A stretch of DNA of 64,000 nucleotides from Escherichia coli (GCF_003334305.1 NZ_QOWS01000005.1); one strand, 5' to 3'. Shown: positions 56,384 through 63,319, counted from the first letter of the stretch. Made by a program: numbers and translations. The notes: generated by a model from the letters alone, not told the origin.

Positions 56384-58069
56384 ATGATAACCATTCCCAT
56401 TACGTTTTGTATGTTGATAGCAAAGTATCTCTGTCTGTTGAAGCCCTTTTGGCTGCGTAAGAATAATAAAACTTCAGTGCTGTTAATCATTATTATCCTC
56501 GCCATGATCCTTGGCGTGGTTAAAATTCAGGTCTGGTTAAACGACTGGAATAATGATTTTTTCAATGCGCTAAGCCAGAAAGAAACCGATAAGCTTTGGC
56601 AGCTTGTCCTTTGGTTCCCTGCCCTGCTGGGGATCTTTGTATTAATATCCGTGAACAAAACATGGTTAATTAAACTGCTGACTATTCGCTGGCGCGAATG
56701 GTTAACAGATTACTACCTTAATCGCTGGTTTGCAGATAAAAACTACTACTTCACGCAGATCTACGGCGAGCATAAAAATACAGATAACCCTGACCAACGT
56801 ATCGCTGAAGACATTCTCTTACTAATCAGCAAAACGCTCAGTCTTTCATTTGGCTTCATCCAGTCACTTAGCATGCTGATCACCTTTACCGTTATTCTTT
56901 GGCAAAGCGCGGGTACGCTCTCATTCACTGTTGGTGGAACAGAATGGAATATCCAGGGGTATATGGTCTATACCGTTGTGCTCATTGTGATCGGTGGAAC
57001 TTTATTTACCCATAAGGTTGGTAAGCGTATTCGTCCGCTTAATGTGGAAAAACAACGTAGCGAAGCGACATTTCGAACTAATCTTGTGCAGCATAATAAG
57101 CAGGCAGAACTGATTGCGCTAAGCAATGCTGAGTCTCTACAACGCCAGGAGTTGAGCGACAATTTTCATACCATTAAAGAGAACTGGCATCGTTTAATGA
57201 ATCGTCAGCGGTGGCTTGATTACTGGCAAAATATTTATTCGCGCTCGCTTAGCGTTCTTCCCTACTTTCTGTTATTGCCGCAGTTTATTAGCGGGCAGAT
57301 CAATCTGGGCGGACTGATGAAATCGCGCCAGGCATTTATGCTAGTATCGAACAATTTAAGCTGGTTTATTTATAAATATGATGAACTTGCTGAACTGGCT
57401 GCGGTTATCGATCGCTTGTATGAGTTCCATCAACTCACTGAACAGCGCCCTACGAATAAGCCTAAAAATTGCCAACATGCGGTACAAGTGGCTAATGCGA
57501 GTATTCGTACGCCTGATAATAAGATCATATTAGAGAACTTGAACTTTCATGTTTCGCCAGGCAAATGGCTATTACTGAAAGGCTACTCTGGTGCGGGAAA
57601 AACCACACTGCTTAAAACATTATCCCACTGCTGGCCGTGGTTTAAAGGTGATATTTTTTCTCCTGCTGACAGTTGGTATGTGTCACAAACACCGTTAATC
57701 AAAACCGGCTTACTGAAAGAGATTATTTGTAAAGCACTTCCCCTGCCCGTAGACGATAAATCGTTGAGCGAAGTACTGCATCAGGTTGGTCTGGGGAAAT
57801 TGGCTGCGCGTATTCATGACCACGATCGCTGGGGAGATATTCTTTCCAGCGGCGAAAAACAACGTATCGCCCTGGCACGATTAATTTTACGACGTCCGAA
57901 ATGGATATTTCTTGACGAAACTACCTCTCATCTTGAGGAACAAGAGGCTATACGCTTACTGCGTTTAGTGCGTGAAAAACTACCCACAAGCGGCGTCATT
58001 ATGGTTACACATCAACCCGGTGTCTGGAACCTGGCTGATGATATTTGTGACATTAGCACGGTTTTATAA
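56384..58069 (+). CDS. yddA: Fused ABC transporter permease/ATPase YddA (561 aa)
   Basis: N-terminal TM domain and C-terminal ABC ATPase (Walker A GYSGAGKTT, signature LSSGEKQR). Confidence 0.9.
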   Translation: MITIPITFCMLIAKYLCLLKPFWLRKNNKTSVLLIIIILAMILGVVKIQVWLNDWNNDFFNALSQKETDKLWQLVLWFPALLGIFVLISVNKTWLIKLLTIRWREWLTDYYLNRWFADKNYYFTQIYGEHKNTDNPDQRIAEDILLLISKTLSLSFGFIQSLSMLITFTVILWQSAGTLSFTVGGTEWNIQGYMVYTVVLIVIGGTLFTHKVGKRIRPLNVEKQRSEATFRTNLVQHNKQAELIALSNAESLQRQELSDNFHTIKENWHRLMNRQRWLDYWQNIYSRSLSVLPYFLLLPQFISGQINLGGLMKSRQAFMLVSNNLSWFIYKYDELAELAAVIDRLYEFHQLTEQRPTNKPKNCQHAVQVANASIRTPDNKIILENLNFHVSPGKWLLLKGYSGAGKTTLLKTLSHCWPWFKGDIFSPADSWYVSQTPLIKTGLLKEIICKALPLPVDDKSLSEVLHQVGLGKLAARIHDHDRWGDILSSGEKQRIALARLILRRPKWIFLDETTSHLEEQEAIRLLRLVREKLPTSGVIMVTHQPGVWNLADDICDISTVL

Positions 58070-58106
58070 CAACAATAAAAGCCCTGCTGTACGGAGATAT
58101 AAATAA

Positions 58107-60479: not shown

Positions 60480-60523
60480 TAGTTCGGATTTTACTTAACC
60501 GGGTAAATTCGCCCGGTTTTCGC

Positions 60524-63319
60524 ATGGAGATAATTATGAGAAACCTCTGTTTCTTACTGACGTTAGTGGCAACTCTGTTGCTCCCCGGGCGGCTGATTGC
60601 CGCCGCCTTACCGCAGGATGAAAAGTTAATTACCGGGCAACTGGGCAATGGCTTGCGATATATGATTTATCCGCATGCTCATCCAAAGGATCAGGTAAAT
60701 TTATGGCTGCAAATTCATACCGGTTCATTGCAGGAAGAAGACAATGAGCGCGGCGTGGCTCATTTTGTAGAACATATGATGTTTAACGGCACAAAAACAT
60801 GGCCGGGTAATAAAGTCATCGAAACATTTGAGTCAATGGGCCTGCGTTTTGGTCGCGATGTTAATGCCTATACCAGCTATGACGAAACGGTGTATCAGGT
60901 GAGTTTGCCGACTACGCAGAAACAAAATCTGCAACAAGTGATGGCAATCTTCAGTGAATGGAGTAATGCCGCAACCTTTGAAAAACTCGAAGTAGACGCT
61001 GAACGTGGCGTAATTACTGAGGAATGGCGTGCCCATCAGGATGCGAAATGGCGCACCTCTCAGGCGCGCCGCCCTTTCCTGCTGGCTAATACCCGTAATT
61101 TAGACCGTGAACCTATCGGCCTGATGGATACTGTCGCCACGGTCACACCGGCACAATTGCGCCAATTTTATCAACGCTGGTATCAACCAAATAATATGAC
61201 CTTTATCGTGGTCGGCGATATCGACAGTAAAGAAGCGCTGGCGCTGATAAAGGATAATTTAAGTAAGCTTCCGGCTAACAAAGCAGCTGAAAATCGCGTC
61301 TGGCCGACAAAAGCCGAAAACCACCTGCGCTTTAATATCATTAATGATAAAGAAAACCGGGTGAACGGCATCGCACTCTATTATCGCCTGCCAATGGTAC
61401 AAGTGAACGATGAGCAAAGCTTTATCGAACAAGCTGAATGGAGCATGTTAGTTCAGCTGTTCAATCAACGTCTGCAGGAACGCATACAGTCGGGCGAGTT
61501 GAAGACTATTTCTGGCGGCACTGCGCGCAGCGTTAAAATTGCACCCGATTATCAGTCGCTGTTTTTCCGTGTAAATGCACGAGACGATAATATGCAGGAT
61601 GCTGCGAATGCATTAATGGCAGAGTTGGCAACCATTGATCAGCATGGTTTTTCTGCTGAAGAACTCGATGATGTCAAATCTACCCGCCTCACCTGGCTGA
61701 AAAATGCGGTTGATCAGCAAGCTGAACGTGATTTACGTATGCTGACCAGTCGCCTGGCATCCAGCTCATTAAATAATACGCCGTTCTTGTCGCCGGAAGA
61801 GACATATCAACTTTCGAAACGTCTGTGGCAGCAAATTACCGTGCAAAGTCTGGCGGAAAAATGGCAGCAGTTAAGAAAGAACCAGGACGCATTTTGGGAG
61901 CAAATGGTAAACAATGAGCTTGCCGCCAAAAAAGCATTGTCTCCTGCGGCTATCCTGGCGCTGGAAAAAGAGTACGCCAACAAAAAGCTGGCGGCTTACA
62001 TCTTCCCAGGCAGAAATTTATCGTTAACAGTAGACGCTGACCCACAGGCGGAAATTAGCAGCAAAGAAACGCTGGCTGAGAATCTGACATCATTAACACT
62101 TTCCAATGGTGCCAGGGTTATTCTGGCAAAATCCGCGGGTGAAGAGCAAAAGCTACAAATTACTGCCGTATCGAATAAAGGCGATTTAAGTTTCCCTGCG
62201 CAGCAAAAATCACTTATCGCGCTGGCAAATAAAGCAGTAAGCGGAAGCGGCGTTGGTGAGCTCTCCTCTTCCAGCCTGAAACGCTGGAGTGCGGAAAATT
62301 CGGTAACCATGAGCAGTAAAGTCAGTGGCATGAATACGTTGCTCTCCGTTAGCGCGCGGACTAATAACCCTGAACCTGGTTTTCAGTTGATTAACCAGCG
62401 AATCACCCACAGCACGATTAACGACAATATTTGGGCATCGCTACAAAATGCTCAAATTCAGGCGTTGAAAACGCTCGACCAGCGTCCAGCGGAGAAATTC
62501 GCCCAGCAGATGTATGAGACGCGCTATGCTGATGACCGCACGAAATTACTGCAAGAAAATCAGATTGTACAGTTTACTGCCGCAGATGCGCTGGCTGCCG
62601 ATCGCCAGTTGTTTTCATCTCCAGCGGATATCACGTTTGTCATTGTCGGTAATGTCTCAGAAGACAAACTCGTGGCGTTAATTACGCGTTACTTAGGATC
62701 AATCAAACACTCTGATTCGCCATTAGCCGCAGGTAAACCATTAACTCGCGCGACGGACAACGCATCGGTTACTGTAAAAGAACAAAATGAACCTGTGGCA
62801 CAGTTTTCACAGTGGAAGCGTTATGATTCCCGGACACCTGTTAATCTGGCGACGCGTATGGCGCTCGATGCTTTTAACGTCGCACTGGCAAAAGATCTAC
62901 GTGTTAATATTCGTGAACAGGCATCTGGAGCATACAGCGTTTCTTCTCGCCTCTCGGTTGATCCTCAGGCCAAAGATATCAGTCATTTGCTGGCTTTTAC
63001 TTGTCAACCAGAACGACATGATGAACTGTTAACGTTAGCGAATGAAGTGATGGTTAAGCGTCTGGCTAAAGGGATCAGTGAGCAAGAACTGAATGAATAC
63101 CAGCAAAACGTTCAGCGCAGCCTCGATATCCAACAGCGTAGCGTTCAACAATTAGCGAACACTATTGTAAATAGTCTTATTCAATATGACGATCCTGCAG
63201 CATGGACTGAGCAGGAGCAATTGTTGAAACAAATGACGGTAGAGAATGTTAACACTGCCGTTAAACAATATCTTTCTCATCCGGTAAATACTTATACCGG
63301 AGTATTATTGCCAAAATAA
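60524..63319 (+). CDS. pqqL: Periplasmic M16-family zinc metalloprotease PqqL (931 aa)
   Basis: Inverted zinc-binding motif HFVEH (M16 HxxEH); signal peptide; two M16 halves. Confidence 0.9.
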   Translation: MEIIMRNLCFLLTLVATLLLPGRLIAAALPQDEKLITGQLGNGLRYMIYPHAHPKDQVNLWLQIHTGSLQEEDNERGVAHFVEHMMFNGTKTWPGNKVIETFESMGLRFGRDVNAYTSYDETVYQVSLPTTQKQNLQQVMAIFSEWSNAATFEKLEVDAERGVITEEWRAHQDAKWRTSQARRPFLLANTRNLDREPIGLMDTVATVTPAQLRQFYQRWYQPNNMTFIVVGDIDSKEALALIKDNLSKLPANKAAENRVWPTKAENHLRFNIINDKENRVNGIALYYRLPMVQVNDEQSFIEQAEWSMLVQLFNQRLQERIQSGELKTISGGTARSVKIAPDYQSLFFRVNARDDNMQDAANALMAELATIDQHGFSAEELDDVKSTRLTWLKNAVDQQAERDLRMLTSRLASSSLNNTPFLSPEETYQLSKRLWQQITVQSLAEKWQQLRKNQDAFWEQMVNNELAAKKALSPAAILALEKEYANKKLAAYIFPGRNLSLTVDADPQAEISSKETLAENLTSLTLSNGARVILAKSAGEEQKLQITAVSNKGDLSFPAQQKSLIALANKAVSGSGVGELSSSSLKRWSAENSVTMSSKVSGMNTLLSVSARTNNPEPGFQLINQRITHSTINDNIWASLQNAQIQALKTLDQRPAEKFAQQMYETRYADDRTKLLQENQIVQFTAADALAADRQLFSSPADITFVIVGNVSEDKLVALITRYLGSIKHSDSPLAAGKPLTRATDNASVTVKEQNEPVAQFSQWKRYDSRTPVNLATRMALDAFNVALAKDLRVNIREQASGAYSVSSRLSVDPQAKDISHLLAFTCQPERHDELLTLANEVMVKRLAKGISEQELNEYQQNVQRSLDIQQRSVQQLANTIVNSLIQYDDPAAWTEQEQLLKQMTVENVNTAVKQYLSHPVNTYTGVLLPK

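Follow-up and report, generated by a model that had tools for sequence, protein, structure and literature searches.

The chromosomal yddA-yddB-pqqL operon of Escherichia coli, a probable Fur-repressed unit for Fus-like protease-associated import

The genes at the yddA-yddB-pqqL locus

The yddA-yddB-pqqL locus was examined in a 64,000-nt stretch of Escherichia coli DNA (NZ_QOWS01000005.1, GCF_003334305.1), hereafter called the window, and all coordinates are counted from its first letter. The locus comprises three co-oriented open reading frames (ORFs) on the plus strand, which encode proteins of 561, 790, and 931 amino acids (Table 1). In general, the genes are closely spaced, with a gap of 37 nt between yddA and yddB and of 44 nt between yddB and pqqL (56 nt when counted from the second pqqL ATG), and none of the three translations contains an internal stop. 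The original prediction had described three tightly linked and intact genes in the same orientation, and this description holds, as the ORF boundaries agree exactly and the gene lengths equal those of K-12 without any frameshift.

Table 1. Features of the yddA-yddB-pqqL locus and its flanks in the window
Feature	Position	Strand	Description
Hairpin after ydeM stop	56144-56175	+	12-bp stem, 8-nt loop, weak UUUCGUC tail; upstream operon boundary
Candidate sigma-70-like promoter	56342-56371	+	TTGCCA-18 nt-CACAAT, TG extended -10; 9/12 in consensus scan
Weak Fur-box-like site	56344-56362	+	12/19 to GATAATGATAATCATTATC; lies over the spacer between the -35 and -10 elements of the promoter candidate
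Fur box	56380-56398	+	GCTAATGATAACCATTCCC; 15/19, extends across the yddA ATG (56384)
yddA	56384-58069	+	561-aa fused ATP-binding cassette (ABC) half-transporter, FusD homologue
yddB	58107-60479	+	790-aa TonB-dependent outer-membrane transporter, FusA homologue
pqqL	60524-63319	+	Periplasmic M16 zinc metalloprotease, FusC homologue; 931 aa (first ATG) or 927 aa (second ATG, 60536)
Intrinsic-terminator-like hairpin	63326-63358	+	10-bp stem with one G-U pair, 5-nt loop, then AUUUUAGC

A megablast search with positions 55900-63700 against 5426 complete E. coli genomes returned matches in 5413 of them, and this 7.8-kb stretch is 100% identical to the sequence of E. coli strain A7. The A7 annotation lists yddA as an ABC transporter ATP-binding protein/permease, yddB as a TonB-dependent receptor plug domain-containing protein, and pqqL as an M16 family metallopeptidase. 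In both A7 and K-12, the genes are flanked by ydeM upstream and by gadB downstream, the latter with its own upstream region. The K-12 MG1655 copies (b1496-b1494) have the same gene lengths and gaps as those of the window and share a nucleotide identity of about 99%, with 23 nucleotide differences in yddA, 21 in yddB, and 18 in pqqL, and no frameshifts. These amount to 6, 5, and 9 amino-acid differences in YddA, YddB, and PqqL, respectively, none of which lies within the catalytic or ATPase motifs. Residue 76 of PqqL is Arg in the window and Leu in K-12, at a position that is also variable in FusC and 9LDY. The locus is the chromosomal yddA-yddB-pqqL operon of E. coli, complete and ordinary, and there is nothing new in this copy. 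The gene names and operon organization proposed earlier are likewise those of the A7 and K-12 annotation and of the published co-transcription (PMC3855560).

YddA is built as a single chain with an N-terminal SbmA/BacA-type transmembrane domain followed by a C-terminal ATPase. Residues 28-350 match the Pfam families ABC_membrane_2 (E = 1.8e-43) and SbmA_BacA (E = 2.4e-33), and residues 383-515 match ABC_tran (E = 5e-18). The motifs of the ATPase are all intact, namely Walker A (GYSGAGKT, residue 400), the signature (LSSGE, 487), Walker B (WIFLDE, 507), and the H-loop (VTH, 541), and the domain as a whole resembles those of CydDC and of type I secretion ATPases. The closest solved relative is PDB entry 6TQE (E = 9e-67, residues 36-552), followed by ABCD transporters. 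This entry is Rv1819c from M. tuberculosis, which has the fold of an exporter and is described as importing cobalamin, bleomycin, and peptides. YddA thus shares the ABC_membrane_2/SbmA_BacA transmembrane domain with the Rv1819c/SbmA/BacA family, in its case fused to an ATPase; SbmA, in contrast, lacks the ATPase domain of which YddA has a complete one. Every NCBIfam match of YddA falls under its curated cut-off (for example, CydD with 105.9 bits against 435 and SbmA with 86.6 against 492). The original prediction had called YddA 'ABC exporter-like', which is apt for the fold only; its transmembrane domain is of the SbmA/BacA type, its closest solved relative is Rv1819c, and the role proposed for it is import.

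YddB is near-identical over residues 29-790 (1738 bits) to PDB entry 6OFR, a YddB structure deposited as 'TonB-dependent outer membrane receptor', and also matches the ferredoxin receptor FusA (4ZGV, E = 1.4e-79). Its sole Pfam match is Plug (residues 48-162, E = 1.3e-6); the expected 22-strand beta-barrel gave no barrel match in Pfam or NCBIfam, and YddB as a whole matched no NCBIfam model. The N-terminus carries a signal peptide and a TonB-box-like sequence, EEMTVYA, at residues 31-37, which resembles TonB boxes such as ETMVVTA. A Shine-Dalgarno sequence (GGAG) lies 10 nt upstream of the yddB ATG. YddB resembles siderophore TonB-dependent receptors such as FepA, FhuA, and CirA in being regulated by Fur and in carrying a plug domain together with a TonB-box-like motif. 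However, its predicted barrel is too divergent for the Pfam barrel and NCBIfam models, and its gene is accompanied by one for a protease instead of one for a periplasmic binding protein. YddB has been reported to group with FusA, away from the siderophore receptors, and to have distinct extracellular loops.

PqqL aligns with its own deposited structures (PDB 6OFS and 6OFT) from residue 27 onward, where the crystallised protein begins, and this residue is preceded by a hydrophobic N-terminal signal. The match to FusC (6B03) covers residues 9-930 with E = 2e-59. In Pfam, PqqL contains Peptidase_M16 (residues 47-203, E = 1.8e-40) and Peptidase_M16_C at 207-386 and 688-862, so the M16 clamshell layout of an active M16 domain and inactive M16_C domains is present. 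The inverted zinc motif HxxEH, which had been noted from the outset, is kept as HFVEH at residues 80-84, and the distal Glu is E167 within ERGVITEE (EE at 166-167); a 2025 review lists the same active-site positions for E. coli PqqL P31828 (PMC12731061). The Pfam architectures of YddA, YddB, and PqqL all agree with the families to which the three proteins had been assigned. Since the NCBIfam matches of YddA and PqqL remain under their curated cut-offs and YddB has no model, no equivalog name can be assigned to any of them.

The pqqL gene has two in-frame ATGs 12 nt apart (60524 and 60536). A Shine-Dalgarno sequence (GGAG, 6 nt spacing) is present only at the second, where the Prokaryotic Genome Annotation Pipeline (PGAP) places the start of a 927-aa protein; the K-12 annotation and the original prediction start at 60524 (931 aa). 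The mature protein is the same either way.

The name of pqqL itself stems from a different idea, according to which PqqL would be a PqqF-like protease of pyrroloquinoline-quinone (PQQ) biosynthesis. PqqL does weakly resemble the PqqF model TIGR02110 (E = 3.9e-13), but its 49 bits are set against a curated cut-off of 320 and come from the generic M16 N-terminal domain only, and no pqqABCDE genes are adjacent to pqqL in the A7 and K-12 context. In addition, the protein resides in the periplasm, and structurally it groups with FusC. A score this far under the family cut-off, together with the gene context, effectively refutes a role in PQQ biosynthesis.

Transcription signals and iron regulation

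A 19-bp Fur consensus, GATAATGATAATCATTATC, was run over the whole window, and two matches of 15/19 were joint best, at 56380-56398 and at 40872-40890. The first of these straddles the yddA start codon, and it is the putative yddA Fur box that was published for strain CFT073 in 2013; the reverse complement of the site contains the published box, GGGAATGGTTATCATTAG (PMC3855560). The site is unchanged in K-12. In random sequences of the same dinucleotide make-up, 0.28 matches of 15/19 are expected per 64 kb, and among 325-nt sequences that share the AT-rich make-up of the region, only 0.8% have such a match. The original prediction, which was guided by eye, had found no convincing Fur box upstream of yddA, and on this point it needs correction. 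The second 15/19 match sits inside an unrelated 459-aa ORF (40215-41594) and is probably a chance occurrence, as about 0.28 such matches are expected in 64 kb. A cluster of Fur-like matches inside yddA (56476-56500, 13-14/19) was also considered and rejected; it is probably compositional, since it coincides with the Ile-rich first transmembrane helix of YddA (LLIIIILAM).

The candidate sigma-70-like promoter in Table 1 is the sole plus-strand candidate in the ydeM-yddA intergenic region. It is weak evidence when taken alone, because such sites are no commoner in this region than in shuffled sequences. A weak Fur-like site overlaps its spacer and could be of chance origin in AT-rich DNA; even so, the arrangement of a strong and a weak Fur-like site on either side of the candidate -10 element is suggestive. 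From the geometry of the promoter, transcription would start about 5-8 nt upstream of the yddA ATG. This ATG has no Shine-Dalgarno sequence, and the candidate promoter ends 12 nt upstream of it. It is therefore possible, as far as the sequence goes, that the yddA mRNA is near-leaderless. If so, the Fur operator would occupy approximately positions +1 to +20, and the level of YddA synthesis would differ from that of YddB and PqqL, whose genes bear GGAG sequences. A literature search on leaderless yddA yielded nothing relevant, and transcription-start data were not found.

Experimental work on regulation is available from other strains and studies. The three genes are co-transcribed, as determined by reverse transcription polymerase chain reaction, are derepressed in a fur mutant, and are induced more than 30-fold in urine (Subashchandrabose et al. 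2013, PMC3855560). Chromatin immunoprecipitation (ChIP) has placed Fur upstream of yddAB-pqqL, with possible co-regulation by RyhB (Beauchene et al. 2015, PMC4676285), and yddA is a member of the Fur-2 iModulon (PMC10164565). In a study of the serum response, yddA, yddB, and pqqL were induced in serum, and yddA was assigned a computed Fur box. As such, the iron- or Fur-responsive expression that characterizes Fus-like systems is represented at the sequence level by the 15/19 box, while its experimental support comes from the literature.

Hairpins mark both operon boundaries. The original prediction had placed a terminator before yddA, and a hairpin does follow the ydeM stop, with a free energy of -19.6 kcal/mol (z = -5.28; 0/200 shuffles as stable). 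It is an inverted repeat with a weak U-tail, and its short T-run explains why a consensus terminator scan did not list it. At the other end, a hairpin begins 7 nt after the pqqL stop and has an AUUUU tail (-18.6 kcal/mol, z = -5.23; 0/200 shuffles as stable). An attenuator in the yddB-pqqL gap (60497-60518) was considered as well and rejected, as the hairpin there is no more stable than shuffled sequences (z = -1.0).

Probable Fus-like protease-associated import and its alternatives

We consider the locus to be a Fur-repressed transcription unit that encodes a Fus-like protease-associated import system, and we place the probability of this reading at roughly 0.8. When iron runs short, Fur would leave the operator that spans the start codon of yddA, and all three genes would be transcribed as a single mRNA. 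YddB, a TonB-dependent transporter whose extracellular binding pocket is unusually large, would then bring a protein cargo into the periplasm, presumably a small iron-containing host protein. The cargo would be cleaved by PqqL, the periplasmic clamshell M16 zinc protease, and the freed cofactor or fragments would be carried into the cytoplasm by YddA, acting as a homodimeric inner-membrane ABC transporter of the SbmA/BacA/Rv1819c type. Protein import, processing of the cargo by PqqL, inward transport by YddA, and energy supplied by the housekeeping TonB are all proposed by analogy with FusA, FusC, and FusD of Pectobacterium.

Several parts expected of such a system are in place. A FusA-clade transporter (YddB) adjoins a co-oriented FusC-type M16 protease with an export signal (PqqL), and YddA has the fused architecture of a transmembrane domain and an ATPase in one chain, although its homology to FusD itself is taken from the literature: YddA, YddB, and PqqL have been named homologues of FusD, FusA, and FusC, respectively (Grinter et al. 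2016, PMC5095587). Subsequently, the structures of YddB and PqqL were solved and the term 'protease-associated import systems' was coined (Grinter et al. 2019, PMC6793856), so the original suggestion of such a system, and the belief that it had already been described, were both correct. The same study found a FusA-like binding site in YddB with a large, outward-facing pocket, and showed PqqL to be an active metalloprotease of narrow specificity that is induced by iron limitation (bipyridyl) and in urine (PMC6793856). PqqL was found in the periplasm and not in the medium (PMC6793856), and the protease should therefore not be called secreted, as it had been at first. During systemic infection, yddB and pqqL both contribute to fitness (Subashchandrabose et al. 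2013, PMC3855560). A survey of the Fus-like family is also available (PMC6793856). With its structures, regulation, and infection phenotype already published, the operon gains nothing new from the window copy, and the initial judgement that nothing here looked new was right.

The comparison with the Pectobacterium FusA-FusB-FusC-FusD system reveals both likenesses and differences. A FusA-clade TonB-dependent transporter, a single-chain periplasmic M16 protease, a fused ABC transporter, and iron-responsive expression are common to both. However, the Pectobacterium cluster has a different gene order and includes FusB, a dedicated TonB-like protein, which yddA-yddB-pqqL lacks; FusB is present in Pectobacterium, yet it is not universal across the Fus-like family. 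YddB and FusA share an identity of only about 24%, and PqqL does not cut plant ferredoxin (PMC6793856).

Several observations weigh against the proposed import system. As of a December 2025 review, no cargo has been named for YddB and PqqL (PMC12731061). The human ferredoxins and globins that were tested, like the plant ferredoxin, were not cleaved by PqqL, and mutants that lack yddB or pqqL show normal growth in iron-limited lysogeny broth (PMC6793856). In CFT073, the genes were induced by deletion of fur but not by iron chelation alone (PMC3855560). Only three genes lie between ydeM and gadB, and a FusB-like dedicated TonB homologue is missing from the cluster. The inward direction of transport by YddA is proposed by analogy, and the operon is dispensable in nature, with about 13% of the complete E. 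coli genomes having lost it by deletion.

Some of these observations would also be expected if the same machinery served a cargo other than an iron source, such as a host or microbial peptide or protein taken up for another cofactor, for amino acids, or for detoxification. YddA would then act like SbmA, BacA, and Rv1819c, as an importer of peptides and hydrophilic compounds. The match of its transmembrane domain to SbmA_BacA and the position of Rv1819c as the closest solved relative are in keeping with this idea, as are the normal growth of the mutants under iron limitation, the resistance of the tested iron proteins to cleavage, and the lack of induction by chelation alone in CFT073. The regulatory evidence points the other way, with a strong Fur box at the start codon, Fur binding detected by ChIP (PMC4676285), membership in the Fur-2 iModulon (PMC10164565), induction of PqqL by bipyridyl and urine (PMC6793856), and induction of the genes in serum. 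Furthermore, the homologous Fus system acquires iron (PMC5095587). We therefore regard a non-iron cargo as improbable.

It is also conceivable that the locus serves export or efflux, with YddA as an ABC exporter and YddB as the exit through the outer membrane. The exporter-type fold of YddA and the resemblance of its ATPase domain to those of CydDC and type I secretion systems would fit such a role, and one transcriptome table lists YddA as a 'multidrug transporter', which is an older annotation. As a precedent, the reported secretion of the Myxococcus protease PopC through a TonB-dependent transporter has been cited (PMC6793856). Nevertheless, PqqL is found in the periplasm and not in the medium, and the YddB pocket faces outward like that of the importer FusA (PMC6793856). 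The NCBIfam matches of YddA to exporters such as CydD lie far under their curated cut-offs. Its best full-length structural relative is Rv1819c, which is described as an importer. Export is thus very unlikely. A non-iron cargo, export, and PQQ biosynthesis are all less likely than Fus-like iron-regulated import.

Natural loss of the operon and further observations

At least 80% of the operon was found in one place in 4604 of the 5426 complete genomes. To count one deletion allele, a 301-bp query across the junction in strain U12A was used and end-to-end matches were scored, which gave 726 of the 5426 genomes. In this allele, ydeM is followed by about 8 nt and then by the last 918 nt of pqqL, so that approximately 56104-62404 is lost; the deletion takes the candidate promoter and the Fur box, both yddA and yddB, and some 627 codons of pqqL, or about two thirds of that gene. 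This allele is found in EC958, the reference strain of sequence type 131 (ST131), and in strain SE15. A second allele occurs in DS566-1 and FDAARGOS_1253, in which approximately 56199-62165 is lost while the ydeM hairpin and 1158 nt of pqqL are kept. Because the DS566-1 junction differs from that of the U12A type, the operon has been lost at least twice. A literature search on ST131 and the loss of yddA or pqqL returned no relevant paper. Since the operon is a reported fitness factor in systemic infection, its loss in about 13% of complete genomes, including EC958, would matter for its use as a vaccine or drug target.

The repeated loss may reflect selection against YddB and not mere dispensability, for example if YddB served bacteriocins or phages as a receptor, in the way that FusA serves pectocins. 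This reading and that of a near-leaderless yddA mRNA are both speculative, and jointly we hold them to be rather doubtful. Neither of them alters the identity of the locus.

The operon (56384-63319) has a G+C content of 45.4% and yddA alone of 43.1%, compared with 32-38% in the flanking intergenic DNA and 46.5% in the whole window. An old horizontal acquisition of yddA-yddB-pqqL would fit the reported absence of FusA homologues from Salmonella and Citrobacter (PMC6793856). A role in defence was also considered and rejected: with PADLOC, YddA showed no more than a generic similarity to ABC ATPases and neither YddB nor PqqL had a match, and the locus is thus not a defence system. An Rfam scan of 55500-64000 (E <= 1) found no RNA family.

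Several smaller features were noted upstream of yddA. A small minus-strand ORF, yneP (b4747 in K-12), at 56061-56181 overlaps the 3' end of ydeM and the hairpin that follows it, and is annotated as frameshifted in the identical A7 sequence. The window lacks 2 nt (TT) that K-12 has just past the ydeM stop. A 12-nt inverted repeat, AAAATGAAATAT-N6-ATATTTCATATT, lies at 56275-56304, 80-110 nt upstream of yddA, with 11 of 12 positions complementary and the same sequence in K-12. It is situated between yddA and the divergent yneP, close to two minus-strand promoter-like sites.

In the plasmid collection, no mobile copy of the operon was found, and the matches were mislabelled chromosomes, assembly fragments, and one 644-bp fragment. 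This fragment corresponds to 56100-56743, that is, the upstream region of yddA and the first approximately 360 nt of the gene. It is present on several E. coli plasmids at about 97% identity, and on at least one of them it adjoins insertion sequence (IS) elements.

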